A stretch of DNA of 64,000 nt from Dehalococcoidia bacterium (GTDB lineage: Bacteria > Chloroflexota > Dehalococcoidia > Plut-88900): positions 128,001 through 192,000 of the forward strand of contig CBDBLV010000001.1 in the NCBI GenBank assembly GCA_965207225.1, read 5' to 3'. Under the pieces are notes generated by a model. That model was not told the origin of the DNA. It saw only the letters and a list, made by a program, of their open reading frames with translations, and searched no databases. This document shows, one piece after another, positions 9,140 through 43,315 of the stretch. The position numbers were made by a program, and so were the translations under genes. Each line of letters starts with the position of its first letter. Within the stretch, counting starts at the first letter, position 1.

Positions 9140-9195
9140 GGCAGGGTGCGCTCTCAACTGCGTTACAACATTCGCAGTACTCAATAGGCACCAAA
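9140..9195. other. attL of ICE-1 (core AA at 9167-9168)
   Basis: Dyad ACTGCG-ttac-AA-catt-CGCAGT; right arm is inversely repeated at 42692-42717. Confidence 0.7.
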
Positions 9196-9493
9196 GGCTC
9201 CGGCACTCTTGGTCTGTGGACTTGCAGCCACCCCCTTCCAAGTGAGTAGGATATACCAGCATGCAGGGCCGGCCGCGCAGAGCAGACAACCATGGGGTCG
9301 TCGGACTGTTCGCCCCGGTGTGCTATTGACGCATATGCCGGTCCAGAGTTCTCCAGAGTTCTTTTCAAGCGTTGGACGGTGTAGTAGAATTGTGACTCGT
9401 GGAAGAATACCTTGTTGGAGGAGCCGAAGAGTGGTTACGCCGGTCCGGCTGGCCGGAGTTGGCGCAGGCTCTGGGCCGACTGTCAGGTGAGAT

Positions 9494-10273
9494 ATGACGA
9501 CGCCAGACACATTTGCCAGGACGCCGCAGGTTCGGGAGACTTTCGTGTTTCCGGACCCGCCGGAAGACCCGGAAGACAAGATGACCAGCTTTGACCATCT
9601 GACGATCACGGGAAGCGCGCACTACCTGGCGATACACTTGGGCAACCGGGAGACGACGCTGGTGGCTGGGGAGCACTACCTGGCCTTGGCACCCACCCGG
9701 AGCCTGGCTGGTGTGAGGTACCCCGACCTGCTGGTGGCCTTCGGGGTGGACCCGGAGGCGTACCGCAGGAGCAACGCCTACGTGATCTCGGAGCAGGGGA
9801 AGGCGCCGGACTTCGTGCTGGAGGTGGCGTCGAGGAGCACGGGCCGGGTGGACGTGGGGGAGAAGCGCGATGACTACGCCCGGTTGGGGATCACTGAGTA
9901 CTGGCGTTTCGACGAGACGGGAGAGTATCACGGGGCGAGGTTGGCCGGTGACCGTCTGGTGGAGGGCCGGTACGAACCCATACCGATAGAGACCGTGTCC
10001 GATGGAGTCCTCCAGGGATACAGCCCTGCGCTGAACCTGTACCTGAGGTGGGAGGGTGGAGCTTTGGTGTTCCACGACCCTGCGACGGGTCGTCCCATCG
10101 CCAGCCTTGAAGACGAGCGTCAGGCGCGAGCGGAGGCGGAAGCTCATGCAGAGGCGCAGCAAGTCCGCGCCGACACAGAGCAAGTCCGCGCCGACACAGA
10201 GCAGGCCCGCGCCGAGGCAGCCGAAGCCCGTGTCCAGGAGTTGGAGGAGCGGCTTCGGGGCCAGGGAGCGTAA
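9494..10273 (+). CDS. Uma2-family PD-(D/E)xK endonuclease with coiled-coil tail
   Basis: YPDLLV, APDFVLEVASRST, YARLGITEYWRFD; 21-bp tandem repeat 10160-10201 in the tail. Confidence 0.88.
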   Translation: MTTPDTFARTPQVRETFVFPDPPEDPEDKMTSFDHLTITGSAHYLAIHLGNRETTLVAGEHYLALAPTRSLAGVRYPDLLVAFGVDPEAYRRSNAYVISEQGKAPDFVLEVASRSTGRVDVGEKRDDYARLGITEYWRFDETGEYHGARLAGDRLVEGRYEPIPIETVSDGVLQGYSPALNLYLRWEGGALVFHDPATGRPIASLEDERQARAEAEAHAEAQQVRADTEQVRADTEQARAEAAEARVQELEERLRGQGA

Positions 10274-10999
10274 ACCTTTGGCGCGCCCGCGCCCGCGTCT
10301 TCCTCTAATAGACCCTGCGACCCAGTCCGGCCGCAGCCCCGAACCCGAGAAAACGATCCTATTGACAACGGCATAGAAGATAGATTATGGTCTTGTCGCG
10401 TAAGGATATTTAGTATCAATACTGTATCAGTAACGAGGATGTCTTGTTGCAGTTTGGAATTCTTGGCAGCGTGGGGAAAATCCTGTAGAATCGGGGCCGC
10501 AGGCAGATTCCGCCTTCGCCTTTTTTGTTGGCCAATAATGAGACTATGTATCAACACAGGCATGGGTATGCAAGTCAATAACGACGTTGCGTTGGCTGAC
10601 GCTAGGTCCTGTCCCGGCAACCACCGGAATCGTGAAACAATCCCTGTGCCAACCGGCGCCGCGCCAGCAGGCGGAGTAAAGTGCCGTCGGGTCCAATTCC
10701 GCCTGGGCTCCAGAATCGGGCAGCAAGCCCCCCCCCCCGACTCTATCCTCGGGCAAACCCGCATCGGGTAGCTTTTCTCTACTGCCCGCCGGCTTTTCGC
10801 GTTTGACAGCCGATGCCTGTCGCGGCGTTCCTTTCCGTCAGGAGGTTCCCCTCCGCTGGTGAAAGCGGCCTGGCAACACGAAACGTTCTCGCCAGAGGGG
10901 AGTACCAATGCAGGAAACCCAGACACGCCCTGAGCGCCAGGCAATGAACAGCGAACCAACCAAATTGAGAATTCGAAAGCAAGGAAGCAAGGAGAATCA

Positions 11000-12634
11000 A
11001 TGAACACCTTTACTAACGCGTCAATGCCCCTAAGACTTTTCGGCGTCGTCTTGGCGCTGGCCCTAGTAGCGGTGGCCGCCCTGTTGGTCACCCCCACCTC
11101 GGCGCAAAGCCCGGACAACACCTACGACGACCCGCAGCCTTGTGGGTTCGGCCAAGGCGCATCCACTGCATTCCAGGCCGAACCGCACGAGAAGACCACC
11201 GGCCACTACGCACTCTTTGACGCCTACTGGGAGGATACGGGGCCGGATCAGGCGCAGACCCCAGGGCTGGACCCTGACCAAACCCCTGACAACACCGGTC
11301 TCCTGCACACCAACGAGTGCCCGCCGCTGTTGACCACCGAAACGCAAGACCTCCAAACCGTAACCACCCTGACCGACTCCGGCGTCGACATCGACGAGCT
11401 CATCATCCACGTGGAGGACTCGCGCAGGGTGACCGTGGTGGAAGGCGACCCGGATGATCGCAGCACTCACCATTTGCGTTTGGACCAGTACGAAGAGGTT
11501 AGGCACTACGTAAATGTCGGCCAACAGGTCTGGTGGCTGCGGCTGGACGACCCGGACCTCAGCGGGAACCAGAAATCCGACCTCACCCTCGGATTCTCGA
11601 CGCACCGATTCGACAAGAAGTACTGGACCAAGGTTAGCTACGAGTTCAGGCTCTTGCGCAACCCCGGCATTGCCCCGAGCGAGCATCCCCACCTCCTCGC
11701 CTACCGGGCGCGCCAGTCGGGTGTGCCCGGCGCGACCAAGGTCTGGGACAGCGCTGAGGCAGGCATCGCATCCATGGAGATGGCGCCCGGCGAACTCATC
11801 AATGACCTACAGTGGGTCTTCACCAAGCCCGGGACCTACGAAATATCTGCTCAACCCGTGGGGTACGTGCGCAACAAAAACCCTCACGCTGAAGGCGATG
11901 AGGAGTACGACGCGAACTGGAAGGCGATCAGTGCAAACGTCACCGAGGCCGGCGAGGTGAAGAAGTACGTCATCCACGTGGGGCCTCTCGTCGAGGTGGA
12001 ACCGCCTCTGTTGGGCGTCAGCCGCAGCGTGCCGGAAAACTCCCCGGCCGGAACCAACGTCGGCGACCCGTTCCTGGTCTACTCGGAAGCGAGTGATCTG
12101 GGGTACAGCCTCTCCGGCGTCGGCCACGAAAACTTCGTAGCAACGGCCACGACCGACGCGGACCCCTACGGCGTCCAAATCAAGGTGGCCGAGGGGGCCA
12201 GCCTGGACTACGAGACCAAGGCCACCTATGACCTCACCTTGGGAGTGACAAACAAGATCGACCACGAGAGCAATCCCGACCCCACCGTAGACGACACCCT
12301 GGTGGTGCGGATCAGTTTGGACGATGTCGCCCCCACCGTGAGCCTTGCAGTCGATAATGCCAGCCCGGCGGTGGGTGACACGGTGACCTTTAGGGCGGTG
12401 TTCCAACACTTCGAAGAAGTAGGAGAGTATCTGTATGATTTCGACAGTCTGTCGAATTCCGATACCCTCACTGGGCGGGTTACCACCAACAACGCCATTG
12501 TGTACACCACCACCCGAAATAGCGCCCTAACGGAAACTTTCACCTTCAGTGCCACTTACGACGTTGATGATGATGGCTCGAACCGACGTGTCATTCACGC
12601 CGAGAATGTCACCGTCACCTGGGGCAACCCGTAG
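11000..12634 (+). CDS. Secreted surface protein with cadherin-like domain
   Basis: Signal peptide (..PTSA/Q); VPENSPAGTNVG and LDYETKATYDL cadherin motifs; WVFTKPGTY motif. Confidence 0.75.
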   Translation: MNTFTNASMPLRLFGVVLALALVAVAALLVTPTSAQSPDNTYDDPQPCGFGQGASTAFQAEPHEKTTGHYALFDAYWEDTGPDQAQTPGLDPDQTPDNTGLLHTNECPPLLTTETQDLQTVTTLTDSGVDIDELIIHVEDSRRVTVVEGDPDDRSTHHLRLDQYEEVRHYVNVGQQVWWLRLDDPDLSGNQKSDLTLGFSTHRFDKKYWTKVSYEFRLLRNPGIAPSEHPHLLAYRARQSGVPGATKVWDSAEAGIASMEMAPGELINDLQWVFTKPGTYEISAQPVGYVRNKNPHAEGDEEYDANWKAISANVTEAGEVKKYVIHVGPLVEVEPPLLGVSRSVPENSPAGTNVGDPFLVYSEASDLGYSLSGVGHENFVATATTDADPYGVQIKVAEGASLDYETKATYDLTLGVTNKIDHESNPDPTVDDTLVVRISLDDVAPTVSLAVDNASPAVGDTVTFRAVFQHFEEVGEYLYDFDSLSNSDTLTGRVTTNNAIVYTTTRNSALTETFTFSATYDVDDDGSNRRVIHAENVTVTWGNP

Positions 12635-12640
12635 TATCGG

Positions 12641-12938
12641 ATGGCGGTTGCTGTGGCCCTTAGGCTTGTAACGCTGTGCCTGTTTGCAGCGCTGGTCGCG
12701 ATGGCGACCAGTGCTGCCGAGCCCGCTTTTGCTGCCCCCTCGCCCCCGGCGAGCCGAATCTCCCTGGACAGTCTGCCGAAGCCAAGAGGAGCCTCAAACG
12801 TCTGGTGGGAGCTCTTCGTGCGCAACGATCCAGTCCCCGGTCACCCACCGGCGGCGGCTTATGATGTAGTCGTTCGCATTACCGCCACGGCCAATGGTCA
12901 GGAGTACAAGCAGCACACAACTGTTAGCAACCCTTCAG
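12641..12938 (+). pseudogene. 5' fragment (signal peptide) of the IS-disrupted Calx-beta adhesin
   Basis: Joins in frame to 14832 once the IS and one TSD copy are removed (..VSNPS-AGYIDRD..). Confidence 0.8.
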
Positions 12939-14826
12939 CCCAAATCCACCGCCTAATTGAATGAGAATACCTCGTTGGAGTCGGCTGCAAAGCTGACTAA
13001 GATGGTAAGTGACAATCCCAAACCATCACCAACGAGGTGCAGTTATTATGCAACATGGAGTCCTACCGTTCCAGTACAGGGCAGAGAACCGCATCGGGGG
13101 CATGACGGCGCTATCGGGGTTGGCAGTCTACCTGGAGATGGCCGAGGCAATCGGCCTTGGCGAGTCGATCAGACGCCACGTGAGGGTCAGAGAGGGAGGC
13201 CAGGGTTGGACGGACCGTCAGATGGTCACCTCACTGACGCTGTTGAACCTGGCGGGCGGCGAAGGGGTGGACGACCTTCGCGTGCTGGAGGCGGACGAGG
13301 GCCTTGGCCGGATGTTGGGAAGGGTGGAGACCCACCGGCAGCGAGCTTCGGAGCGCAGGGCGGTGCGCAACCGGTGGCGGCGTGACCGACACCGCTATGT
13401 GCCGTCTCCATCGGCGGTGTTCCGGTATCTGAGCCAGTTCCACGACGCATCCCAGGAGGAGGCGAGGCAGCCTCATACGGCGTTCATACCCCAGGCCAAC
13501 GACGCGCTGGACGGACTTGGGAAGGTCAACGCCGAGATGGTGGGCTTTGTCCAGGGCCACGTCGGGCATAGGCAGGCGACACTGGATATGGACGCGACGC
13601 TGGTCGAGACTCACAAGCAGGAGGCGCTCTACTGCTACAAGGGATTCAAAGCCTATCAGCCGCTAACGACATACTGGGCCGAGGCGGACCTGGTCGTCCA
13701 CTCGGAGTTCAGAGACGGCAACGTTCCTGCGGGATTTGAGCAGCTACGAGTGTTGCGAGACGCGTTGGAGTGCGTACCCGAGGGAGTGGAGCGGGTGATG
13801 CTGCGGTCCGACACGGCAGGCTACCAGAACGATCTTCTGGAGTACTGCGCCGAGGGGAGAGACGAACGGTTCGGAGTGATCGAGTTCGCGATTGGGGTAC
13901 GCGTCACGGACGAGTTCAAGCATGAGGCGGCGCTGGTGGAAGAGAGCGAGTGGCGTCAGTTGCCCCGGATGATGGGGGAGTTCGAGGTGGAGACGGGGCA
14001 GGAGTGGGCCGAGGTGGGCTTCATGTCCAGTCGATTAGGTCGCTACAAGGAGGGTCCCGCCTACCGTTTCATAGCCGTCAGAGAACCTCTGAGGCGACCG
14101 CCGCTACCGGGCATGGAGAGTGAGTTTGAGCTGTCGGTTCCGGTCATGCAGATGCCGAACCACGGCTGGTACAAGATCAGCGGGATAGTGACGAACCGGG
14201 AGCTTCCGGGAGACGAGGTTGTGCGGTGGTACCGTGAGAGATGCGGGAAAGGCGAGGAGGTCCATAGTGTGCTGAAGGAGGACCTGGCGGGCGGGAGACT
14301 GCCGTCGGGACAGTTCGGAGCCAACGCAGCGTGGTGGGCGATAACGGTGCTGGCGTTCAACCTGAACTCGGCGGTCAAGCAGTTGGCGCTGGGTGATGAG
14401 TGGGTGACCAAGCGGCTCAAGGCGGTGCGCTTCGCTCTGATCGACCTTGCCGGTCGAGTGGTCTACCATGCCAGGAAGCTGCTGATCCGACTGGCGCGAG
14501 GTCATCCATCGTTCCCGCTGCTGGTCGGGGCACACCGGAGAATAGCGGCGCTGGCTCACGGCCCTCCCTGAATCTGAGACGGTCCGCGCCACAGCCTATC
14601 GGTCAAGCGACGTGGATAACCGTCGTAGGGACGCTGCGTCCTCCTACGAGGCCAAACGGCTCAAAATCGACGCAAAACATCGTAAAGCAGCACCCCAAGA
14701 CCCTCATACGTCCACCATCGGCCCCGCCAAACCACTGCTAACCCTGTCAGTAGCCAATCGACGCCCCCACCGGCCCAACCGAAAGGTCAGAAAATCAGAT
14801 TCCTACCTTTAGGCGGTGGATTTGGG
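12939..14826 (+). mobile_element. IS1380-family insertion sequence, 1888 bp
   Basis: Perfect 18-bp TIR CCCAAATCCACCGCCTAA (12939-12956 / 14809-14826); 5-bp TSD TTCAG (12934-38, 14827-31). Confidence 0.92.
13048..14571 (+). CDS. IS1380-family DDE transposase
   Basis: LDMDAT, YQPL, FRDGN, LRSDTAG, YRERCGKGE, FGANAAW motifs; start uncertain (13009 or 13048). Confidence 0.88.
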   Translation: MQHGVLPFQYRAENRIGGMTALSGLAVYLEMAEAIGLGESIRRHVRVREGGQGWTDRQMVTSLTLLNLAGGEGVDDLRVLEADEGLGRMLGRVETHRQRASERRAVRNRWRRDRHRYVPSPSAVFRYLSQFHDASQEEARQPHTAFIPQANDALDGLGKVNAEMVGFVQGHVGHRQATLDMDATLVETHKQEALYCYKGFKAYQPLTTYWAEADLVVHSEFRDGNVPAGFEQLRVLRDALECVPEGVERVMLRSDTAGYQNDLLEYCAEGRDERFGVIEFAIGVRVTDEFKHEAALVEESEWRQLPRMMGEFEVETGQEWAEVGFMSSRLGRYKEGPAYRFIAVREPLRRPPLPGMESEFELSVPVMQMPNHGWYKISGIVTNRELPGDEVVRWYRERCGKGEEVHSVLKEDLAGGRLPSGQFGANAAWWAITVLAFNLNSAVKQLALGDEWVTKRLKAVRFALIDLAGRVVYHARKLLIRLARGHPSFPLLVGAHRRIAALAHGPP

Positions 14827-14831
14827 TTCAG

Positions 14832-17800
14832 CCGGGTACATTGACAGGGACGCTGGAGAGTGGGTCATCCCCTTTATACCGCCGGGGGGCACCGCTGACG
14901 TGATCATTCAGCCCGCAGCATTCTTTCCTCGATTCAATCAGGATACACCAGTCCGCCTGCACGCTGAATTGGTTTCACATCGTTACCTCGCCAGCGAAGC
15001 AGGCAGCCAAGGGAGTATTGAAACCGAGGATTGGTACATTAGGGCTGCGAATGCTTATCTTTTTGCATGGCCAGGTGCAGAAGTAGGCGTAAGAGTTCGC
15101 AGCCTTAACAACAGGGTTCCAGCGTTAGGTACGCAGACGCAGACCACGTTTGATGTTCGTGCGATTAATGTACCCTACAATGACCCAGACCCAAGAGTTC
15201 TAATAGTACCAAGCAAGCAGATTGGCAAAGTATGGGATGTGAAGATCAAGATCGATCTTTCGCCGGGGTTGTCTTTAGCTCCCGGATGGACTGCGCCGAC
15301 CGGCACATCCTTTGACGCCGAAAGCGGTATCTGGAATGTGGGGTTAATTAGTGGCGCAAATACCGGTACGACAATGTCTTTGCCGGTACTCCTCGCCGCG
15401 GATAACGTTCCCTTGGAGCAGCGGTGCCTGACGGCGACGGTGGTGAGCTCCACACCCGACTTCGAGCTGGACCCGGGGGTGCTGGTGAACGACTTCTCCA
15501 CCAAGTGCCTGGGCGAAGATCCGATATTGAACGAGGGCGATATTGCTGTTTTCAAGTACGTTTCCTGCGTTGGCCGCACATCTTACCCCTGCACCAGCGA
15601 TGACACACTGGAATTGGTGGCAAAGCATGAAGCGGCATTCTGGCAGCCTGAAGATGTCATTGTCCAAGTCAGGGACGTCCAGGGAAGGGTTGAGGCGGGA
15701 TGGAGCACCGGCAAGACGGCAAGGCACCTTGCTTCTGTTCCTTCGATCCCTGGTGTTGGTGTCATCTTCGAAGTCATTGATAGCGGGTACAACGCATACA
15801 CTTTTGCAATTAGCGACGTGGTGCCAAAACAACGGCCCGGCAAATTTACAGTTGTGGCCGGCAACGAAGGAAACATTACCATCTTGGACGCCGACACAAT
15901 GCTGTCCGCGGGACCGTACAACCTTAATGAACCAATTCCCGCATTAGTAGTTTTCGGCACTTTGGGCACATATAAGGTAAAGATAACCGTTGGGGCTACC
16001 AAGTCGGGGACGGCGTACACCGACAGCGGCGTCTACACCTTCCACGTGGGGCCGATAGCGGAGCTTGCGGTGCGGGACGGCGGTCGCAGCCCACTGGCGG
16101 CGCCGGACCAGCAAGCCTACACCATCCTCGCGGCCAACAACGGACCAGACGCGGCTGGGGCCGTGCGGGTAACCCTCACAGGCGTACCCCAGGGCGCGGA
16201 GGCCATCGTCAGTGGCAGCACCAAGCGCGTGGACGACGAAGACGTCAGCGGCAGCGATGGAAGGTACGCGCAGGGCGACTGCGTAGACGGATTCTGCGAA
16301 GCCACCTGGACCATCGGAAAGATGTCCGTTTCCTCTGGCAGGACCTCCATCGGCAAGATGCCCTTCCCCACGCTGACCCTGATCGCCCCGGACGGCGCGT
16401 CCACGTCGGGCATTGAGGCCAGCATCGAAAGCACCGAGCCCTACTCGGTTACCATCGACGGCACGGTCCACTCCACCGCCTACTTCGACTACATCGATGA
16501 GAACAACAGCGCTCACATCGCTGCCCGGGCCGGAGCCGGCGGGCCAGTGCCGGGAACGCCACAGGACCTGCAAGCGCAGTTCTACACCGTTCCATTCACG
16601 ACCGCCCTCGTGTGGTGGACCGAGCTTGAGTCGGTGAACGGCTTCCCTGTGTCCCGCTACGAGGTGTTCACGGAGCGGCCGAATGGTGGAGCCTGCCAGG
16701 CGCCGAGTACGGACCAAGCGGGAGAGCGGCTCACGGGAACGACGTACGCGGACCGCCGTGCGAAGGAGGGCGAGCTCACGTGCTACTACGTGCGGGCAGT
16801 GAATACTCATAAAGTTCCCGGCTACTGGGCGGGGCCGGTGATGGCGACCGGCGACAGCCCGGACCAGCCGCGGCTGTCGGTGCAGGGAGGCGATCCAGTC
16901 GACGAGGGCGACGCCGCCCAATTCACGGTCAGCGCCTCCCCGGCCCCCGCCGCCGGAGACAGTCTCACCTTTGGCTACACGGTGATCCAGCGTGGCGACT
17001 ACGTAGCCGACAGAGAGTTGGGCCAGAAGCATGCAACCATAGGCAACAGCGGCCGCGCCACCATAACCGTCCTCACCGTGGGGAACGATACCGACGACGC
17101 CGACGGGGAGATATTCGTCACCCTGAACAACGGCGAGGGCTACACGGCGTCTTCGGCCCGGTCGGCCAGCGTCGTGGTGAGGGACGACGACAATCCCTCG
17201 GTGTCCTTCGCCGACGACCCGGCCACCGTGAGCGAGGGAGATGGCACTTACGACGTGGTGGTCAACCTGGTTCCGGCGCCCCATGCCGCCACCAGCATCA
17301 AATACCAGATCGGGGGCGTCGCCGAGGCCGGCGAGGATTTCACGATCGGCGGCCTGAGCAACGGCTTTGGGTCGGTCTGGGTCGGGCCCGGGCAAAGCAG
17401 CGTTCCCATCCGGGTGCGGCTGAGCGACGACGGCACGAGCGAGGATGATGAGTGGGTGGACATCTACCTGCGCGCGGGAGAGAACTACGACGTGGGAACT
17501 CCGTCCCGCTACACGCTGACCATCACCGACAACGACGGCCCCGGGGCGCAGTTCGCCCGGGCCGATAGCGAGGTTGGCGAGTCCGACGGGAGCGTGGGCG
17601 TCACCGTCAACCTGGTCCCGGCGCCCACCGAGGACGTGACCATCAACTACACCCTTGGCGGCGGCACGGCCACGCGGGGCACTGACTACAGCATCGAAGG
17701 CTTAACCGGCTCTTCCGGGTCGGTGACGGTCTCCGCCGGGATCAACAGCGTCGGCATCCCGGTAACCATCAACCCCGACGGCGACTCCGAGCCCGACGAG

Positions 17801-19348: not shown

Positions 19349-19480
19349 AAGCAACCGGCCGGCGTCCCCACGGGGGCCATGGGCTGAAGGCGGCAGTTCG
19401 GCTGCCGAGCATTGGACGCCAACGCGCCGGTGCTGATGCGGACTTGGTGAAACGCAAAGAGAGCGGGATACATGCCGGTA

Positions 19481-19517
19481 GAGAGGGAGGCCATCCAATT
19501 CGGATAGCCTCCCTCTC
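19481..19517. terminator. Hairpin between convergent genes
   Basis: GAGAGGGAGGC...GCCTCCCTCTC. Confidence 0.6.
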
Positions 19518-19523
19518 TTGTAC

Positions 19524-20681: not shown

Positions 20682-21144
20682 GTCGCTTCTCCTTTGAATG
20701 AAGAAGCGGGACGGCCGCCACCCCCGTGGGGTGGAGACAGTCCCGCTCTGAATTGGCGTCCCGAATGGCCGGGACTGTCTCCGTGGGTTTTGTGTTGTCG
20801 CTGTGGCCGATGGCCGGCTGCGGCGTCCTCCGTATCGCTGTACTGGGCAGGCTCTACGTGGGGAAGCCGCGCGCGGGCAATGTCAGTGCCCGCCGTGCGT
20901 TGGGCATAGTTCCTCCTGGGTGGGTTAGTGGATGGGTGGTGCGGGACCGGGGTCCCGCAAGCAAGGGGGCGGAGCGGGCAAGCTCCGACGTGTGAAACGG
21001 CGTGGAGAGCCAGGACGAGGGGAGCGCTAGCTAGCGTCGTGCTCGACCCATGCAAGCAGAGTCAAGAGGGCGGCGCGCGCTGCCTGGGGGTGCAAGGTCA
21101 GCCGCGCCGCCCGGCGTCACCTGGGGTGTGCGCCGAGACCGTGG

Positions 21145-21612: not shown

Positions 21613-21670
21613 CGTGTACCTCCTGTGCCTTTGTTTCTGATGCCTTGAATCCGTTGCGCCCGGTTTCGGG

Positions 21671-21709: not shown

Positions 21710-21744
21710 TCTGATTGGGACGGGCTATGTGTTTTTCATGACTG

Positions 21745-34855: not shown

Positions 34856-34861
34856 TGAACC

Positions 34862-35617
34862 ATGCGTCTGTACTACATCGACGAGTCCGAGGGACCCACC
34901 TGCTACGTCCGCTCCGCCCTGGGCGTGGACGCCGAACGGTGGAACGACCTGTTCGCCGACATCCAGGAGTGGAGAAGCGAACTGCACGAGGGCTACGGCA
35001 TCCCGACCGACAGGGAGCTCCACGCCTGCGACCTGCTGGCGGGGAGAGGGATGCTGGCCCGAAACGGGGAAATCAACGCGCGACTCACGCCCTCCCAGGG
35101 AGCCGAGGTCTTCAGGGACGGGCTGCGCCGCATTGAGGACGCCGCCCGCACCGGCGGCGTGGAGGTCATCAACGTCTGCCTGAGAAAGTCCGACGTGAAG
35201 GCGCACGAGCAGGTCAGCCTCGACCGGCTGCTCAACCGCATCAACGCCTCGGTCAAGGCGGCGGGGGGACACGCCTTCCTCATCTTCGACGAGGGCAAGG
35301 AGCGGATGATCACACGGGCCTATAGACGGCTCAGGATATTCAACCCCGTGCCCAGCAGGTACGAGCGGTGGGAGGAAGGCGAGAGGACCAGGAACATCCC
35401 CGTGGAGAACGTCATCGGAGACCCCGCCTTCAGAAGCTCCGACTCGGACCACCTGCTCCAGATGGCCGACCTCGTCGCCCACGCCCTGCTCAAGCAGGAG
35501 GAGGAGCCCGTCCCCAGAGTGGAGACCCACGGCATCCGCGAAGCCTTCTCCATACTCGACAAGGCCCTCAACCGGAGAGCGTCAGGGCACGATCCCCAGG
35601 GCATCGTCAGGCGATGA
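34862..35617 (+). CDS. DUF3800-family protein
   Basis: YIDES, ELH, IFDE, LQMADLVA motifs. Confidence 0.8.
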   Translation: MRLYYIDESEGPTCYVRSALGVDAERWNDLFADIQEWRSELHEGYGIPTDRELHACDLLAGRGMLARNGEINARLTPSQGAEVFRDGLRRIEDAARTGGVEVINVCLRKSDVKAHEQVSLDRLLNRINASVKAAGGHAFLIFDEGKERMITRAYRRLRIFNPVPSRYERWEEGERTRNIPVENVIGDPAFRSSDSDHLLQMADLVAHALLKQEEEPVPRVETHGIREAFSILDKALNRRASGHDPQGIVRR

Positions 35618-35663
35618 GTGGAGGCAGGGGCGGGTCGTTGGCCATGTCACAAGGCCCGCGCCC

Positions 35664-35951
35664 CTATTCCTCTACCTTGTCGTCAAGACCTCGCCCATAG
35701 ATCATCAACTCGAAGCCGCCCGGCACGGAGCGAGACAGCTGCACGATACCGTAGTAGCTGCCACCCTTCGGTCTCGCCCCTCCCCTCAGCCACGTCTGAA
35801 CGGTGCCTTCCTTCACGCCCAGGAGCCGGGCTAGGTCCTGCCGCGACAGGCCCGCCATCTCCAACAGGCGTTTCAGCCGTTGCGGAAAGTCCTCCGGCCA
35901 GCCCGGTGAGCGGAAATCCTTGAGGCTCCCTTCATGTCCTTCGACTGTCAT
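35664..35951 (-). CDS. XRE-family HTH protein
   Basis: FPQRLKRL..AGLSRQDLARLLGV...TVQTW; GAGGAGG RBS. Confidence 0.78.
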   Translation of the reverse strand: MTVEGHEGSLKDFRSPGWPEDFPQRLKRLLEMAGLSRQDLARLLGVKEGTVQTWLRGGARPKGGSYYGIVQLSRSVPGGFELMIYGRGLDDKVEE

Positions 35952-36029
35952 TGCGCCACCTCCTCGGTTGATGTTTCCCGATCGGCCTCCTCGTCCAAAT
36001 GGCAGAGGTCGGCCCGTTCCCAAGCCCGG

Positions 36030-36470
36030 CTAAGCGGAATCCCGCAACCCTTTGTCGGCGCTGCCATTCAGGGAGTCAGCCACTGCTGCGACCAGCAGGG
36101 CCATCGCGGTGGGCAGGTAGAACAGCCCGATGGAGAGTATCCCCACAAGGCATAAGGCCAGGAGAGCCAGCGCCGATATCCACAACAACGCCTTTCGCCT
36201 CGCCAGCCCGGCATCGGTGAAACGGATGACCAGCAGCGTTAGGCCAGAGAACAGAATGGGAATGAGCAGCAGCCAGAGCACGTACAGACCATTCACTTCC
36301 ACCAGGGTGGCGGTGTGCCTTGTCACCTCTCCCGCAGGCTCACCCGGCATGGACAGAGTGACCGATACACCCCGATAGACGGGTGCGAAGACGAACCAGA
36401 GCCCGGCGACCCAGGCCAGCGCATGGGCTACCCACGCCGAGATCGCGGCAACTCCGGCTCGCTTCATCAT
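36030..36470 (-). CDS. Hypothetical multi-pass membrane protein
   Basis: Several hydrophobic helices; AAGGA RBS. Confidence 0.7.
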   Translation of the reverse strand: MMKRAGVAAISAWVAHALAWVAGLWFVFAPVYRGVSVTLSMPGEPAGEVTRHTATLVEVNGLYVLWLLLIPILFSGLTLLVIRFTDAGLARRKALLWISALALLALCLVGILSIGLFYLPTAMALLVAAVADSLNGSADKGLRDSA

Positions 36471-36497
36471 TCCATCCTTTGGGCCAAGAAGCGGAGG

Positions 36498-36816
36498 CTA
36501 CGCCCCGTCCAACTCGTATTCAGGGCCAACCCACCGTATCCGCACCCACGTCATCGTCGTGTACATCAGGTGGTTGTAGCAGCGCGAAATGGCCTCCCTG
36601 GTGTATTCCTCTATCTCCTCGTCGCCGACCCCGCCCTCCCTCAGGGAGTTTTGCACCCGCTTCAGTATGCGGGACGCGTCGGGGTTGTCCGGGCTGTAAG
36701 TCTCCGTCCTCCTCGTCGTCTGCGTCATTCCCGTAATAGACGAAGGGGTACGCTTCCCAGATATCGACCTCGATGTTCGGGTATCTCACTCCCAATTCGA
36801 TCATTCTTCCAGCCAT
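36498..36816 (-). pseudogene. Frameshifted small mobile-element protein
   Basis: RYPNIEVDI in one frame and ILKRVQNSLREGGV..EEIEEY..EA....YNHLM.TTM.WV in another, resembling one phage/plasmid family; shift near 36700. Confidence 0.5.
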
Positions 36817-36892
36817 TTGCTCCCCTTCATTCGCTTTCACAATGGGGTCTGGACGCTGCTGGTCAACAGCTACTTCTAGGTGATGCGGGCAT

Positions 36893-37321
36893 TCACTCCA
36901 TCGGGAGGGGCGGCTGTAGCCAAGCCATCTCCTGCGGCACCCCGAAGTGCTCGGCCACCTCCCAGAGCTCGCTGAGGCCCTCGGCCATCGCCTCGTCCAC
37001 GTCCATCAGCAGGGCGCGGGCGAAGTCCTCCGCCTCCCGCTCGAAGAGGCTGCCCAGGCTGGTGTGGTCCCGTATCCACAGGTGGTTGCCGGAGTGCAGC
37101 AGCCTGTGGCCTATGGCATGAGCTATCACCCAGCGTCGCCAACGGGAATCGAGCCGCTCGGCCACGCCGATGTACCGGTCCATCTGCATCTCCTCCTGGA
37201 CATCCAACGGCCAGGTCACCACCTCCAAGCCCAGGATGCTGGCCACGGTCTCGGCGTCCACCCGGCCCGACAGCTTCAGCTTTCGCCGCAGATCTCTGGC
37301 CTTCCGCTGCGCTCGCTTCAT
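36893..37321 (-). CDS. ImmA/IrrE-family metallopeptidase-like protein (HEXXH degenerate: HAIGH)
   Basis: RRWVIAHAIGH..LH, EREAEDFARALLM, VAEHFGV; coupled to the repressor gene. Confidence 0.82.
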   Translation of the reverse strand: MKRAQRKARDLRRKLKLSGRVDAETVASILGLEVVTWPLDVQEEMQMDRYIGVAERLDSRWRRWVIAHAIGHRLLHSGNHLWIRDHTSLGSLFEREAEDFARALLMDVDEAMAEGLSELWEVAEHFGVPQEMAWLQPPLPME

Positions 37322-37716
37322 CTTCCGTTCCTCTCCGTCCTCCGCCGCTGCTCCCGCACGAAGCGGATGAAGTTCATGATGGACTCGATGTCCTCCATGG
37401 GAAGGCCCTCGATGGCGTTGCGGAAGGAGACGTCGGCCTCCTTCAGTATCTCCGCCTCCACCACGTCCCGGCCAAGGAGCCAGTCGGTGCTCGTCTCGCA
37501 CTGGTAGGCAAGCTCCAGTAGATGCTCCGGGGTGGGCTTCATCTTCCCCGACTCCCAGGACCAGACGGCGTGGGAGCTGACCCCGACCAACTCGCTCACT
37601 TGTTTCTGGGTGAGGCCGACCTTCAGCCGCGCCTCCTTGATGCGGGCTCCGATGCTCTTCCAGCGGTAGCCCGGGTCTATGGTCATGGGTTCCGGCCTCT
37701 CTTGGTCAACGCTCAT
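37318..37716 (-). CDS. ImmR-like XRE repressor
   Basis: IGARIKEAR...GLTQKQVSELVGVS..AV..WESG..KP, DWLLG. Confidence 0.88.
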   Translation of the reverse strand: MSVDQERPEPMTIDPGYRWKSIGARIKEARLKVGLTQKQVSELVGVSSHAVWSWESGKMKPTPEHLLELAYQCETSTDWLLGRDVVEAEILKEADVSFRNAIEGLPMEDIESIMNFIRFVREQRRRTERNGR

Positions 37717-37745
37717 AGGCGATCATAATCCACGATTAGGAGTAT

Positions 37746-37788
37746 CGCACACTTGTTCTTGACAAGCTACTTGCGATATGATTACACT
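37746..37788 (+). promoter_or_regulatory. ICE early promoter with adjacent LexA-like box
   Basis: CGCAC-ACTT-GTTCT (37746-59) abutting TTGACA (37759), TACACT 18 nt later. Confidence 0.5.
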
Positions 37789-37831
37789 ATATCATAAGTG
37801 TAGCTTAGAGTACAGGAGACTATCTTTCCCC

Positions 37832-38071
37832 ATGAAACGCACCGTCGTCCTGCTCAAGACGAGAGCCCTCTGGGAGCGGCTGGCCCTGCTCGACCGCTCC
37901 CAGAACTGGCTGGCCCGCGAACTCGGCATCAGCCCCGGCTACCTGTCCTACCTGGTCAACACAGGCCGCGCCCCGTCCGGGCGCATCAGGCGGCGGATGA
38001 GGACGGTCCTGGGAGTGGAGGATTTCGATGAGTTATTCGAACTGGAGCATCCCAATGACGACAGCGCTTAG
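37832..38071 (+). CDS. Cro-like HTH protein
   Basis: SQNWLARELGISPGYLSYLV..GRAPS; divergent from the repressor. Confidence 0.82.
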   Translation: MKRTVVLLKTRALWERLALLDRSQNWLARELGISPGYLSYLVNTGRAPSGRIRRRMRTVLGVEDFDELFELEHPNDDSA

Positions 38072-38378
38072 CTCTCCCCGCCTGCCAGCGTATCCCGGCG
38101 ATCCGGTCATCGACGGCAGACTCGCGCCCTTTCTGAGCGGGGAACTGCCCGACGACTTCGCCCAGCGGCTCATCCGCCTCAAGCTGGCCAGCGACCTCAC
38201 CTGGGAGGAGTTCGCCGACGTCCTGGGCGTGGAGCTCAAGCAGGTGTTGAGGTGGACCCAGGGAACCAAACCATCCGGCGGGGCACACCACTCCCTGGTG
38301 GAACTCGCGCCGTGGATACCCGGCGGCCTGGAAATCCTCATGGGAGAGGGTTTCCTGGACCCCCTCAGGAAGGAGTAA
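38055..38378 (+). CDS. XRE-family HTH protein
   Basis: FAQRLIRLKLASDLTWEEFADVLGV...VLRW. Confidence 0.75.
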   Translation: MTTALSSPRLPAYPGDPVIDGRLAPFLSGELPDDFAQRLIRLKLASDLTWEEFADVLGVELKQVLRWTQGTKPSGGAHHSLVELAPWIPGGLEILMGEGFLDPLRKE

Positions 38379-38381
38379 CGC

Positions 38382-38657
38382 ATGTCTCGCAAGCGAACGA
38401 GGCGACAGAGAACGATCTCCGTCCTGACCGGCGACTTCGGCAAGGGACTGGAGGACTTCAAGGAGGCGTCCGGGCTGCCGTGGGCCGAGATCGCCCGGCT
38501 CCTGGGCACCAGCACCCTCAACCTTTGGCGATGGCGCAATCGGGGAGTCCTACCCAACATGCACCACCTGCTGGCCCTCCAAGAACTGGCCGATAGCAGG
38601 GGTCTCGGCCACCTGCTCCCGACGGCCAAGCTGCTTCGGCCCTCCCAGCACCCGTAA
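38382..38657 (+). CDS. XRE-family HTH protein
   Basis: KEASGLPWAEIARLLGTS...LWRW; AGGAG RBS. Confidence 0.75.
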   Translation: MSRKRTRRQRTISVLTGDFGKGLEDFKEASGLPWAEIARLLGTSTLNLWRWRNRGVLPNMHHLLALQELADSRGLGHLLPTAKLLRPSQHP

Positions 38658-38725
38658 GGCGCTGCACCCCTGGCATAGGGCCACGCCCCGTCCTCCAAGG
38701 CCCTGCGATGCTCCCCGTCGAGTTT

Positions 38726-38780
38726 CATGCGTGAAATCCCCTTCCGAGGGATAACGCTCGTCTTCCCCACCGCCCACACT
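38726..38780 (+). promoter_or_regulatory. Second copy of the ICE promoter-like motif
   Basis: CATGCGTG-N41-CACACT, 27 bp identical to 23988-24014. Confidence 0.6.
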
Positions 38781-38835
38781 GACAAGAGCACGCCTGTTCG
38801 CTATCTGAAGACGAGCCCCGCCTTCGGCGTCGAAC

Positions 38836-39126
38836 ATGCTGAACACGCCACGAGAAGTTGCGATCTTGAGAGACACCAAGCACAGGACGAAGCGGCGAGA
38901 CCGCAAGAGCGACGCCCCGGATATGAGGGTTGTCGGGATCGACTTCAACCCCGGTCCCGACGCCGAGGAGCGATTGCGCCGCCTGTTCACCATCCTGGTG
39001 AGGCTGGCAGACGACGAGATCCCCGCCCTTGGCGCGGAGCATCAGGTGGACGAAGGCGGCGAGGAGCGCACCGAGGTTCTCCCCACCGGCTCAGACGGTC
39101 TCGAAAGTCTGCCGCCGCACAATTGA
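38836..39126 (+). CDS. Small hypothetical protein (possible directionality factor)
   Basis: PGPDAEERLRRLFTIL helix; lies between the motif and the TA/integrase genes. Confidence 0.55.
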   Translation: MLNTPREVAILRDTKHRTKRRDRKSDAPDMRVVGIDFNPGPDAEERLRRLFTILVRLADDEIPALGAEHQVDEGGEERTEVLPTGSDGLESLPPHN

Positions 39127-39160
39127 TGCTGTTTATGCAAATATGTTATGCTGAAGCATC

Positions 39161-39424
39161 ATGAGAACCAGAACCACCATCTCCCTTGACGACCGGCTTG
39201 CCAAGCAGGTGCGCCGCGAGGCCGAAGCCCGCGGCATCAGCATGAGCGCCTTCATAGCCAGGACGCTCGACGACGCGCTCAAGCGCCGCGAGCCGTCGGA
39301 GCCGCCGCCCTTCCGGCTGGTCACCGTAAGCGGCGTCCACGCCCGCCCCGGAGTCGATCTCGACCGGACCAGGGCGCTCGACGCGCAGGAAGACGAGGCC
39401 CGGTTCGGGCGCGGGAGCCGCTAG
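39161..39424 (+). CDS. vapB: RHH/CopG antitoxin (VapB-like)
   Basis: RTTISLDDRL...A...GISMS.FI...L; upstream of PIN toxin. Confidence 0.82.
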   Translation: MRTRTTISLDDRLAKQVRREAEARGISMSAFIARTLDDALKRREPSEPPPFRLVTVSGVHARPGVDLDRTRALDAQEDEARFGRGSR

Positions 39425-39430
39425 TTCGAA

Positions 39431-39874
39431 ATGCTGCTTCCCGACGTGAACGTCCTGATCTATGCGCACGTGGAGGACTCGATCCCCGAACACGCCGAGT
39501 ATGCGGATTGGATCACCCGCCTTGCGACGGGGCCTGAGCCCTTCGCGCTCTCCGTCCTCGTCCTTTCCGGCTTCGTTCGCGTCGTGACCAACCCCAGGGT
39601 CTTCGACCCGCCTTCCACTCTCGACCAGTCCTTCGGGTTCGTCTCCTCCCTCGTGGAGCGTCCGACCGCGCGCATCGTGGGACCGGGACCCGACCATCTG
39701 GACATATTCGAGAGGCTGTGCAGGCAGTCCGGAGCCGCAGGGAAGCTTGTAGCCGACGCCCAACACGCCGCCATCGCGGTCGAGCACGGCTGCACGATGG
39801 TGACCACCGACTCCGACTTCAGCCGGTTCCCCGGACTCAGGTGGCAGCATCCACTGAGTCCCGGCGAGCTTTAG
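39431..39874 (+). CDS. vapC: VapC PIN-domain toxin
   Basis: LPDVNVLIYA, DAQHAAIAVEHG, TTDSDFSRFPGL. Confidence 0.9.
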   Translation: MLLPDVNVLIYAHVEDSIPEHAEYADWITRLATGPEPFALSVLVLSGFVRVVTNPRVFDPPSTLDQSFGFVSSLVERPTARIVGPGPDHLDIFERLCRQSGAAGKLVADAQHAAIAVEHGCTMVTTDSDFSRFPGLRWQHPLSPGEL

Positions 39875-40016
39875 GCGCCCTTCGTTCCTCAACGGGAGCC
39901 TTCGGTCTGCCGGCAGCCTCAGTGCAGGCTTCATTGCGTTGGAGGGAGTCGAACTGGCAAGCCGGGTGTCTGTTTTGAACTTCCGCTAGAAGGATAGGCA
40001 ACAGAGGGAGGCAGTC

Positions 40017-40124
40017 ATGGCGAGAAGCGCCTGTAGCAACACACAGAAGCAGCGGGCGGCCATCTATGCCCGCGTCTCCGACAAGAGCCAGGCCGAGGAG
40101 GACAAGACATCCATCTCCGAGCAG
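40017..40124 (+). pseudogene. Truncated 5' duplicate of the serine integrase gene
   Basis: 40056-40124 is identical to 41184-41252 (AAIYARVSDKSQAEEDKTSISEQ). Confidence 0.85.
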
Positions 40125-40211
40125 GGGAAGGCCAGACATCGCCTCCCGCTAAAGACGAAGAGTGTGAGAACGGCAATGGCGGTTGACTGGAACGGCCCGG
40201 TAGCAGCGTCA

Positions 40212-40856
40212 TCACCAAGCCTGCGGGATGGTGATGACGCCGATGTCATCCCTGAGCGTGTCGGGAAGCACGCTCTGGCGCAGGTGGCTCTTCCACAGGC
40301 GCTTCACGTAGGTCGCGGCGTCGGCCAACTCCTTCGGGCTTCTGTTCCGGGGATCGGGGTTTACCAGCGTGACGCGAATCCCGAGGTCGTCCCGCACGTA
40401 CCGCATCGCACCGGCGAAGTCCGCGTCGTTCGACACCACGACCGCCTGCTCGTAGTCCCGGTTGACCCCGTCCACCAGAAGACGGGTGGCGAGGTTCACG
40501 TCGGACCCCTTCTCCTCCGAGTCCCTCACCAGGACGTGAGTCGGCAGTTCCGCCACCGGCTCCGCCAGCGGGCGGCGCTTGACGCCGGACCGGAAATGTC
40601 CGTAGTAGGCATCGAAGCCCGAAAGCGTCGCCAGAGCCCTGAGGTACGCCTGCTGTCGCTGCCGTTGGGATGGGTTGCCGGGGCGAGCGTCAAGTCTGGC
40701 GGTGAAGTAGCACACTTTGTTGATGTCGTCTTGAGGAAAGAGGGTTTCCGCCAGCCTCCGAAGGTCGAGCCACCGGAACGGCGTGTCCTTCAGGGCGCGG
40801 TAGTAGAGATTGAAGCCGTCGATGTAAACGTTGGTGATCAATCCCGACTCCCTCAC
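40212..40856 (-). CDS. NYN (LabA/DUF88-like PIN) domain protein
   Basis: VYIDGFNLYY, EEKGSDVNLA, VSNDADF; true start may be TTG 40841. Confidence 0.9.
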   Translation of the reverse strand: MRESGLITNVYIDGFNLYYRALKDTPFRWLDLRRLAETLFPQDDINKVCYFTARLDARPGNPSQRQRQQAYLRALATLSGFDAYYGHFRSGVKRRPLAEPVAELPTHVLVRDSEEKGSDVNLATRLLVDGVNRDYEQAVVVSNDADFAGAMRYVRDDLGIRVTLVNPDPRNRSPKELADAATYVKRLWKSHLRQSVLPDTLRDDIGVITIPQAW

Positions 40857-40857
40857 A

Positions 40858-40951
40858 AAGACAGAGACCGCCCGGAAGGACGGTCTCGACCCTACCGCCG
40901 AAGAGATAGGGGTGGTTCAATCAACCTATCACGAGACGGCGGAGATGTCAA
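40858..40951 (-). promoter_or_regulatory. NYN promoter and two-hairpin leader or small RNA
   Basis: TTGACA-17-TAGGTT; hairpins 40890-40911 and 40864-40887 followed by UGUCUUU. Confidence 0.55.
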
Positions 40952-41144
40952 CTGAAACCTCTTTGACGACGCCCCACTCGTCGCGGTATCATGAGAACGA
41001 AGTTGGCCCGGCGATGCTGCAAACACCCCGGGCCGTGGCCCCACCTGCGGCAGCAGGCAGCGCGTCGGTATTGTACTACCAGCAGACCCGCTCCCGACAG
41101 GAGGCGGGTCTGTTTTAGTTTCTGAGAGATTGATGGAGGTTTAC

Positions 41145-42728
41145 ATGGCGAGAAGAACCGATAGAAACGCGCCCAAGAAGCGAGCGGCCATCTATGCCCG
41201 CGTCTCCGACAAGAGCCAGGCCGAGGAGGACAAGACATCCATCTCCGAGCAGATGGGCGACATGGAAGCCTACTGCGAGGAGAGGGGCATGGCCGTCGTG
41301 GCACGCTATCAGGAGGTCGGTCGGGGCTGGTCGAAGAAACGCCCGGAGTTCCAGAGGATGCTCGCCGACGCCAGGATGGGACGCTTCGACACCATCGTAT
41401 GCTGGAAGTCCGACCGGCTCAGCAGGGGCATGTACCCCGCAGCCGCCCTCATGGAGGTCGTCGAGGCGTACCGCATCGGCATCGAGGCTGTCATGGACGC
41501 CATCGACATGAAGACCTTCGGACTCATGGCGGCCATCGGCAAGATCGAACTGGACAACTTCAGGGAGCGTGCCTCTATGGGCAAGCGCGGCAAGGCCAAG
41601 CAGGGCAGGCTGCCCACCGGGTCGCCGCCCTACGGCTATCGCGTCGACGAGCACGGCAACCCCTACGTCTACGAGCCGGAGGCCAAGTTCATCCGCCGCA
41701 TCTTCCGACAGTATGCCGAAGAGGGCATGACCGCTCCCGCCATCGTCCTGGGGTTGGAGCGGGACGGCGCGCCCCTGCCGCCCAGGTGCTCCAAGTGGCG
41801 CAAGGAGCGAGTCCACGCCATTATGAGCAGCGAGACCTACAGGGGCACCTACTGGTACGGCAAGAGCAGTTGGGTGACCACCGAGGACGGAACCAAGGGA
41901 ACGAAGAATCCAAAGGACACCTGGATAGGCATCCCGTTCCCACCCCTCGTGGATGAGAAGACCTGGGAGCGGGTGAAGGCGCGCAAGTTCAAGCGGTTCA
42001 GCCACTCCAAGCGCAACACCAAGACCTTCTACCTCCTCCAGCACATGGTCAGGTGCTCCGAGTGCGGGTTGTATCTCCACGGCAGGGCGCAGAGCAAAAA
42101 GTCCCAGTACTACAACGGGAAGCGCTACGCCTATACCCTCGACCCTCCCCACCGCTACTACCGCTGCGGTGGGATGACATCCCACAAGCTGGAGTGCCGT
42201 AGACCGGGCTTCATCAAGGCCGAACGGCTGGAGGAGTTCGTCTGGAGCGAGGTCAAGAGAATGTTGCAGAATCCCGGCCTCATCGTCGCTGGCATCGAGT
42301 CGCTGGGCTCTCAGGAGGACGACGGCTGGGAGAAGGAGATCGACAGGGTCGAGCGCGAGCTCAACAGGGTCCAGTCCGAGGAGGACAGGGCCATCAGGCT
42401 ATACGTCTCGGCCAAGATCACCGAGGCCCAACTCGACCACCAGCGTAAGTTCATCACCGAACGGCTGGAGACGCTCCGCAGGGACTTGGACGACTACCGG
42501 GCGCAGCAGGCGGCGCTGGCCGAGAAACGCATCCTCATGGAGAATATCCTGGCATGGGCAAGCAAGGTCGGAGACCGTCTCGACGAAGTGCCCGACGAGC
42601 AGCGCAAGGACATCCTGAAACTGCTGCTGGACCAGGTGGTGATCGACGGCGACAATAACATCCGGTTCACCCTCGGCATCCCCGCCGAGGATTTGGTGTC
42701 AGTTAAGTACCCCGAATCAATACCCTAA
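41145..42728 (+). CDS. Large serine recombinase (ICE-1 integrase)
   Basis: AIYARVS, DRLSR, PPYGY, CSECG zinc ribbon, coiled coil. Confidence 0.93.
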   Translation: MARRTDRNAPKKRAAIYARVSDKSQAEEDKTSISEQMGDMEAYCEERGMAVVARYQEVGRGWSKKRPEFQRMLADARMGRFDTIVCWKSDRLSRGMYPAAALMEVVEAYRIGIEAVMDAIDMKTFGLMAAIGKIELDNFRERASMGKRGKAKQGRLPTGSPPYGYRVDEHGNPYVYEPEAKFIRRIFRQYAEEGMTAPAIVLGLERDGAPLPPRCSKWRKERVHAIMSSETYRGTYWYGKSSWVTTEDGTKGTKNPKDTWIGIPFPPLVDEKTWERVKARKFKRFSHSKRNTKTFYLLQHMVRCSECGLYLHGRAQSKKSQYYNGKRYAYTLDPPHRYYRCGGMTSHKLECRRPGFIKAERLEEFVWSEVKRMLQNPGLIVAGIESLGSQEDDGWEKEIDRVERELNRVQSEEDRAIRLYVSAKITEAQLDHQRKFITERLETLRRDLDDYRAQQAALAEKRILMENILAWASKVGDRLDEVPDEQRKDILKLLLDQVVIDGDNNIRFTLGIPAEDLVSVKYPESIP

Positions 42729-42745
42729 CCCTCTTGCACGGAGAC
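42692..42745. other. attR of ICE-1 (core AA at 42719-42720)
   Basis: TTTGGTGTCAGTTAAGTACCCCGAAT is inverse to 9170-9195; C-rich host composition resumes here. Confidence 0.7.
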
Positions 42746-42751
42746 CCCCCG

Positions 42752-43315
42752 ATGCCCGACCAAGAACTAACCCGCTGCTTCGGCTCACCCGACGACCCCC
42801 TCATGATGTCCTACCACGACAACGAATGGGGCATCCCCTTCCACGACGACCGGAAGCAGTTCGAGTTCCTCTGCCTCGAAAGCATGCAGTCCGGCCTCTC
42901 CTGGAAGACCATCCTCGACAAGCGCGAAAACTTCCGCAAGGCCTTCGCCAACTTCGACCCCGAGAAAGTAGCCTCCTACACCGACGCCGACATCCAGCGG
43001 CTCCTGTCCGACGCCGGGATCATCCGCAACCGACGCAAAATCGAGGCCATCATCAACAACGCCCGACGCTTCCTTGAAGTCCAGCGGGAATTCGGCTCCT
43101 TCGACGCCTACATCTGGCAGTTCACCGGCAACAAGGTCCTTCGTCGGGACCACGAGACCATGCCCGCCCAGACCCCCGAGTCGGAAGCCCTATCCAAGGA
43201 CCTCAAGGCCCGTGGCTTCAAATTCATGGGCCCCGTCGTCGTCTACTCCCACATGCAGGCCACGGGCCAGGTCAACGACCACCACCCCACCTGCTTCCGC
43301 GCCCCCAAACCCTGA
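42752..43315 (+). CDS. tag: DNA-3-methyladenine glycosylase I
   Basis: RC, YHDNEWG, FEFLCLESMQSGLSW.TIL.KR, IIRNRRKI, GFKFMGP, NDH...C. Confidence 0.95.
   Translation: MPDQELTRCFGSPDDPLMMSYHDNEWGIPFHDDRKQFEFLCLESMQSGLSWKTILDKRENFRKAFANFDPEKVASYTDADIQRLLSDAGIIRNRRKIEAIINNARRFLEVQREFGSFDAYIWQFTGNKVLRRDHETMPAQTPESEALSKDLKARGFKFMGPVVVYSHMQATGQVNDHHPTCFRAPKP

Follow-up and report, generated by a model that had tools for sequence, protein, structure and literature searches.

The locus described here raises the question of what becomes of a DNA-repair gene when a mobile element inserts directly in front of it. In a 64,000-nt stretch of a metagenome-assembled Dehalococcoidia genome (G000:C1:128001-192000, hereafter the window; genome of 4.03 Mb on five contigs, 64% G+C), a block of 33.5 kb lies between a host amidohydrolase gene and tag, the gene for DNA-3-methyladenine glycosylase I, and judged by its gene content this block is an integrative conjugative element (ICE), designated ICE-1. 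It was found to be inserted by a two-base crossover within a hexamer that is conserved upstream of tag in related species and that probably forms the -10 element of the gene's own promoter. The explanation favoured here, with reasonable confidence, is that ICE-1 came to lie in this -10-like hexamer through ordinary target choice by its large serine recombinase (LSR).

Boundaries, crossover and empty site of ICE-1

ICE-1 was bounded by comparison with an empty site and covers 33,552 bp with one copy of the crossover dinucleotide AA (9169..42720, plus strand). Its host neighbours are the amidohydrolase gene on the left (7367..8992, plus strand; Pfam Amidohydro_3, E 6.7e-86) and tag on the right (42752..43315, plus strand; Pfam Adenine_glyco, E 1.2e-78). 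In locus L002 of G008, which represents the closest sister species and has flanks 94% identical to the window, the amidohydrolase gene is followed by approximately 90 bp and then tag, and the DNA across the predicted join reads ACTGCGTTACAATACCCC (longer stretch of the intergenic DNA: CCACTGCGTTACAATACCCCAACCC). Homology to this empty site was found to extend on the left flank up to 9168 and on the right flank from 42719, and the join computed for excision is identical in sequence to that of the sister over the conserved block. An earlier reading of the letters alone (the sequence-only reading) had reconstructed attB and attP by joining at AA and had proposed that empty-site relatives be sought. 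It would have been refuted by a different junction in such genomes, and it passed this check, as the junction of G008 matches its predicted join base for base. Among the seven other genomes of the genus with a close tag orthologue, four have the amidohydrolase gene adjoining tag (L002, L004, L005 and L007).

The crossover was placed at the AA of 9167-68 and 42719-20, and the core shared by the two junctions can be read as AA or as the 3-nt CAA that occurs at both (9166-68 and 42718-20). Beside each CAA, as the sequence-only reading had stated, lies one of two inverted repeats (9170-9195 and 42692-42717), which match at 20 of 26 positions at the register then proposed, a score attained once when 200,000 pairs of 26-mers were drawn at random from the window. 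When scored as arms around AA the repeats gave 17/24, 19/26, 21/30 and 24/35 matches. In the integrated state, attL (9143..9194, plus strand) consists of the host B arm, AA and the P' arm of the element, and attR (42693..42746, plus strand) of the element's P arm, AA and the host B' arm. The symmetry of P and P' is centred on AA, and B and B' match at 6 of 26 positions. These features are those of a serine integrase, in that the attP arms are imperfect inverted repeats flanking a non-palindromic dinucleotide, AA, and attB has little in common with attP beyond the CAA core. A dyad around AA in attL had also been claimed earlier; CTGCG (9158-62) and CGCAG (9173-77) were indeed found equidistant from AA, with the symmetry being modest (5/9, the inner four bases unpaired). 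All four arms are single-copy in the genome at up to five mismatches.

Base composition and related contigs point to the same ends. GC skew is approximately 0 within ICE-1 and approximately -0.2 in the host flanks, the change falling in the 1-kb bins that contain the two ends, and it marks the element boundaries in this genome. At the right end, a 657-nt contig (X5) and a 169-nt contig (X6) with a match of approximately 95-97% to the 3' end of the LSR gene both cease to match at 42720, which is independent support from related elements for the boundary at that position. Taken to the level of single bases, the anatomy of ICE-1 was confirmed by these sequence comparisons. The host DNA of the window (1-9000 and 42700-49700) has an unusually strong plus-strand GC skew of approximately -0.2, which is absent from both ICE-1 and a second element, ICE-2, described below.

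Evidence of excision was looked for in assembled contigs of public runs (Logan); the runs containing the stretch are labelled as sponge, coral and marine metagenomes. No attB or attP junction was seen among the contigs listed, and no RNA run was found among those containing window 41000-43500. No contig bridged attR under a rule of 31 letters on each side; an exact 1,591-nt contig (X1) begins at 42693, 28 letters left of the join. Contig depth in X1 and X3 was approximately 130-200 around the LSR gene against 8-11 on the tag side, a measure that cannot rank the parts of the locus; the higher depth may be due to near-identical LSR ends in other, more abundant genomes of the sample.

A conserved hexamer upstream of tag

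Joining of the host flanks restores the hexamer TACAAT, with the AA of the crossover at its positions 4-5. The gene downstream was identified as a full-length member of its family (PF03352, 263.5 bits, profile positions 4-176 of 177) and its product is 96% identical to that of G008. The start described by the sequence-only reading was retained with regard to the GGAGA ribosome binding site (RBS; 42740-44) and to the end of the hexamer 30 nt before the ATG, with the ATG itself being corrected from 42753 to 42752.

Eight sequences of the genus were aligned on the tag ATG, with the window entered as its computed empty site. All eight were found to possess a hexamer starting 32-36 nt before the ATG, which is TACAAT in five (including the computed site of the window) and TAAACT in three. 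Farther upstream the sequences could not be aligned, and in L003 and L006 the hexamer is kept despite a different upstream neighbour. Among family-level relatives (L009-L019) the regions upstream of tag were unalignable and speak neither for nor against the hexamer.

The position of the hexamer was compared with that of similar sequences across the genome. Upstream of 1,891 gene starts, the pattern TAN[AT]AT was found 34, 27 and 24 times per 5-nt bin at -50 to -36, compared to approximately 8 at -150 to -66, and TACAAT was the third commonest form (23) among 135 such sites. A -35 signal is weak throughout the genome, with T at 42% and 34% at its first two positions for a 17-nt spacer. As a positive control, hexamers of this kind were found 14-30 nt in front of 17 of 49 tRNA genes, among them the tRNA-Ile gene of the window. 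The similar hexamers that had been pointed out elsewhere in the window were all found to be present, namely TACAAT at 43979, TATAAT at 572 and TATAAT at 49666, the last of these 11 nt before the tRNA-Ile gene. Furthermore, the amidohydrolase gene is followed by a hairpin and T-run resembling an intrinsic terminator (9019..9070, plus strand; a 19-pair stem, then TTTTATTCT; fold energy of 9011-9075, -40.6 kcal/mol), from which it can be argued that tag needs a promoter of its own. Conservation and these position statistics suggest that the hexamer is probably the -10 element of that promoter.

Several observations weigh against this assignment. At 17-nt spacing the rebuilt site offers GCAGGG, a poor -35 sequence, due to which a scan with a two-hexamer consensus found no promoter at the empty site of the sister. 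The hexamer, at -36, lies at the edge and not at the peak of the enriched zone, and the gene starts on which that zone is based came from a crude caller of our own (long open reading frame (ORF), bias in third-position G+C, RBS). Conservation is also not confined to the hexamer but takes in approximately 8 nt before it (ACTGCGn), more than a plain -10 element accounts for. The earlier claim that the join falls inside the -10 box of tag was thus borne out with regard to a hexamer conserved in eight of eight sequences, with the empty promoter scan of the sister site and the poor -35 region standing against it.

The same observations can be taken to mean that the block is the binding site of a regulator or an element of the 5' untranslated region, tag being transcribed from farther upstream. 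In that case ICE-1 would still stand between tag and its promoter, and rebuilding of the hexamer would be irrelevant. Besides the lack of an acceptable -35, the negative scan and the conservation of ACTGCGn, it can be said in favour of such a role that three of the eight species carry TAAACT, a weaker match to a -10 element. Transcription from farther upstream would nevertheless have to pass the strong terminator-like hairpin between the upstream gene and the block; nothing upstream of the block is conserved, the neighbour being a different one in L003 and L006; and -10 hexamers with a weak -35 are the rule at such a distance in this genome. A block with no promoter function is therefore considered unlikely.

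Palindromic repeats were observed in the spacers between the amidohydrolase gene and tag. Those of L002, L003 and L005 contain short units (CCGTCATTCC...GGAATCCATCCCC) that recur across species, and the window (9075-9135) and L008 share another (CTCCCCCTCTCCC...GGGAGAGGGGGA). By sequence, these resemble repetitive extragenic palindromic (REP)-like intergenic repeats.

The integrated state of tag and the possibility of a switch

At attL the hexamer is replaced by the hybrid TACAAC (9164-69) and at attR by ATCAAT (42716-21), the latter as given by the sequence-only reading. The A at the second position and the T at the last position are the two most conserved and most important positions of a -10 element. 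The cut separates precisely these two, with attL keeping TAC..C and attR ATC..T, and neither hybrid is likely to be usable as a -10 element. No new promoter was identified at attR by scan or by eye, the best reading (TTGGTG, 17 nt, ATCAAT) having 3 + 3 of 12 consensus matches, and within the 90 nt upstream of tag the only TAnnnT match left in the integrated state is TACCCT.

What lies in front of tag instead is int, the gene for the LSR (41130..42728, plus strand; 532 aa in the integrated state). Its product matched the Pfam domains Resolvase (PF00239), Recombinase (PF07508) and Zn_ribbon_recom (PF13408), all over the cut-off, and contains the motif YARVSDKSQ, which we take to be that of the serine nucleophile. 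The int stop codon and the tag ATG are 23 nt apart, with the GGAGA RBS in this interval, making tag the next cistron after int; there is no space for a terminator, and the earlier suggestion that tag is open to read-through from int agrees with this. A single promoter-like site was found in 39900-43400, 138 nt before int (40963..40992, plus strand; TTGACG, 18 nt, TATCAT; 10/12 matches, a consensus match only). A hairpin in the final 60 nt of int, directly ahead of the P arm (42671-42690; 7 bp, GC-rich, weak T-run ATTTGGTGT; -16.6 kcal/mol for its 52-nt context), could attenuate such read-through, which would count against int-driven expression of tag, or it could be incidental.

The int ORF itself spans the crossover, the host DNA supplying its last three codons and the TAA stop (42726-28). 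Because attP sits in the last codons of int, the length of the protein differs between the two states, being 555 aa in the computed circular form compared to 532 aa when integrated. Three int paralogues in the genome likewise run past the conserved C-terminus into flanking DNA, and by sequence the location of attP inside the last codons of the LSR gene seems to be a trait of the family. At 40008-40124, 1.1 kb upstream of int, lies an isolated piece from the 5' end of an LSR gene, with 24 of 24 residues equal to the int start (RAAIYARVS...ISEQ); a gene with an NYN domain lies on the opposite strand between this fragment and int.

Taken together, the proposed course of events is that ICE-1 was inserted by its own LSR, via a 2-bp AA crossover, between the amidohydrolase gene and tag, and that its target coincides with the one block conserved in front of tag, a hexamer of the form TAnAnT and most probably the tag -10 element. 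In the integrated state tag would be left without a promoter of its own, as the distal cistron of any transcript of int from the promoter-like site, so that its expression may differ from that of the empty site. ICE-1 may still excise, and precise excision would rebuild TACAAT. Ordinary target choice by the LSR is most likely, with a short conserved sequence giving the element a dependable place to insert; the consequence for tag is probably incidental and tolerated. Elsewhere in the genome an alkylation-repair gene of PF08713 (208.5 bits) and a second, short match to Adenine_glyco were found, and a profile search of the genome for PF02245 gave no match; with such redundancy, the cell may tolerate the loss of tag.

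An evolved switch is a less likely reading than such target choice. Under it, excision and reintegration would be controlled, for example in response to DNA damage, with tag off or driven from int while ICE-1 is integrated and returned to its own promoter after excision. Parts of the locus would suit this: the crossover is exact to the base and inherently reversible, a -10-like hexamer is found in attB only, the LSR is complete in its three domains and has the RVS serine motif, the reading frames of the conjugation genes are open, and a divergent pair of helix-turn-helix (HTH) regulators lies within the element. ICE excision is usually limited to a small share of cells, and at such low frequency it would yield a rare subpopulation and not a switch of the whole population. 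No attB or attP molecules were seen among the contigs listed for the public runs, no recombination directionality factor was identified in ICE-1, other alkylation-repair genes are present, and the integration module can be swapped between sister ICEs (see below). In addition, the sequence-only reading had proposed checking whether homologous integrases also sit upstream of tag, and the outcome went against a dedicated association, with none of 111 related LSR loci adjoining the gene (0/80 and 0/31, the locus of ICE-1 serving as positive control in the 31-locus set; flanks of 3,000, 2,500 or 1,500 nt were examined where the contig was long enough, so that a more distant tag would escape). The closest of these recombinases were 68% identical among genome contigs, 63% over the full length among metagenome contigs and 62% among 151 genomes of the class. 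There is a precedent in SpyCI, where an operon including tag is silenced and then restored by excision (PMC3430984, PMC4689407). On balance an excision-controlled switch at tag appears improbable, and any regulatory meaning of the locus is speculative.

Little probability is likewise given to a single 6-bp control point shared by host and element, at which tag would have its -10 element only with ICE-1 out and would depend on the int promoter with ICE-1 in, Int toggling at the same time between 532 and 555 aa. If such a control point did exist, alkylation repair and the tail of the integrase would both reflect whether ICE-1 is in or out, and a symbiont lineage would possess a promoter switch carried by an ICE and driven by an LSR; the 2-bp crossover splitting two key -10 positions would then amount to a minimal, scar-free promoter switch at a DNA-repair gene.

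That the att sites have been wrongly assigned, with the repeats arising by chance and the true ends lying elsewhere, has in its favour only the general caution that short repeats can do so and is very improbable given the base-for-base agreement with the sister's empty site, the repeat statistic, the skew change in the bins of both ends and the related contigs that cease to match at 42720.

Gene content, ICE-2 and comparison with known systems

Searches against Pfam identified a set of conjugation genes in ICE-1, in agreement with the earlier description of the block as an ICE with an LSR integrase. On the plus strand these comprise a VirB6/TrbL-like channel protein (24695..25675; TrbL, E 2.5e-06), a pilin-like protein of a type IV secretion system (T4SS) (25835..26116; T4SS_pilin, E 1.1e-11), a VirB4/TraC-type ATPase (28170..30437; P-loop_TraG, AAA_10 and TraC_F_IV), a type IV coupling protein (30582..33176; TrwB_AAD_bind, E 5.6e-09) and a relaxase candidate (33173..34855; Replic_Relax, E 4.3e-08); a second pilin-like protein is encoded at 27821-28150 (T4SS_pilin, E 9.3e-07). 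With its own integrase at the right end and att junctions defined against the empty site, the element also has the integration features of an ICE. The divergent HTH pair (37318-37716, minus strand, and 37778-38071, plus strand; HTH_3, E 7.2e-11 and 6.2e-04) is a candidate control region of ICE-1, with a regulatory role suggested by domain content and arrangement. Further genes include an insertion sequence (IS) transposase (13009..14571, plus strand; DDE_Tnp_1_4, E 3.2e-31), a ribbon-helix-helix (RHH) and PIN pair resembling VapBC carried as cargo (39161-39874), a 1,510-aa Calx-beta protein, a Uma2 nuclease, several HTH regulators and the NYN protein.

A second element, ICE-2, was observed in inverted orientation 7 kb from ICE-1 (window 49682-51377 on to 64000). 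The VirB4 proteins of the two are 90% identical and their LSRs only 25% identical, which indicates that sister ICEs exchange integration modules. The LSR ORF of ICE-2 (49701-51377, minus strand) runs antisense across the 3' part of the tRNA-Ile gene (49682-49758), and from this arrangement its recombinase appears to be targeted to a tRNA gene. Of the 36 LSR matches in the genome, seven, of the ICE-2 type and located on C1, C2 and C5, each follow a different tRNA gene (Ile, Ala, Lys, Gln, Val, Met and Val) at a distance of 60-75 nt and are always convergent with it.

A preference for promoters across the LSR family of int was considered and rejected. Two of the three int paralogues of the genome lie inside coding sequences: L022 (G000:C2:121768-126321; 62% identical) is situated inside an antisense LSR gene of the ICE-2 type, one element therefore being nested in another, and L024 reads into, or cuts, a helicase-like ORF. 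The third, L023, is located past the end of an ORF that converges on it. Such sites, like the tRNA-Ile gene next to the LSR of ICE-2, speak for the target at tag being incidental.

A literature search with limited terms yielded no paper that places an ICE or LSR element in the promoter of tag, and none that deals with ICEs of Dehalococcoidia associated with sponges. To our knowledge, mobile elements that interrupt genes and are excised to restore them sit in coding sequences or at operon junctions. Even on the reading of ordinary target choice, the locus provides a fully defined triplet of attB, attP and LSR from a poorly studied phylum, and it also documents sister ICEs swapping their integration modules.

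The SpyCI element of Streptococcus pyogenes, whose integrase is of the tyrosine type, is a close parallel with regard to the genes affected. SpyCI at mutL silences the mutL-lmrP-ruvA-tag operon, with excision restoring expression (PMC3430984, PMC4689407), and strain Manfredo has a promoter within int that rescues expression of the genes behind it (PMC3430984). In both cases a mobile element parts DNA-repair genes, tag among them, from a promoter (as proposed for ICE-1), and the int-internal promoter of Manfredo parallels the option of read-through from int. SpyCI is, however, a phage-like island that enters an operon at the 5' end of a coding sequence, and its growth-phase excision was shown experimentally, whereas ICE-1 is conjugative, has a serine integrase, cuts a -10-like hexamer and is known from sequence alone.

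Intervening elements excised by an LSR include SPbeta with SprA in spsM and gin in gerE, to which skin with SpoIVCA and the XisF system of Anabaena can be added. Similar to what is predicted for ICE-1, these are removed precisely by the recombinase with rebuilding of the host sequence. They lie within coding sequences and are excised during terminal differentiation, unlike ICE-1, which has a non-coding promoter-like target, is conjugative and belongs to a non-sporulating lineage.

The change at the end of Int has a counterpart in the integration-dependent immunity of mycobacteriophages, where attP lies in a coding sequence and integration alters the C-terminus of the protein (PMC9262239). In that system the gene is a repressor, the recombinase is of the tyrosine type and the tail that is lost is an ssrA-like degradation tag (PMC9262239); in ICE-1 it is the last residues of the LSR itself that change, and no degradation tag was recognisable. 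With the serine-recombinase ICEs of Firmicutes, for example those of a Streptococcus survey (PMC4701971), ICE-1 shares a conjugation module coupled to an LSR with a specific target. It differs from these in that its host is an uncultured Dehalococcoidia and in that its closest LSR relative is 68% identical, with none of the relatives found sharing its target. The case of ICE-1 is one that combines known kinds, namely an LSR-borne ICE and an element that reversibly disrupts host expression signals.

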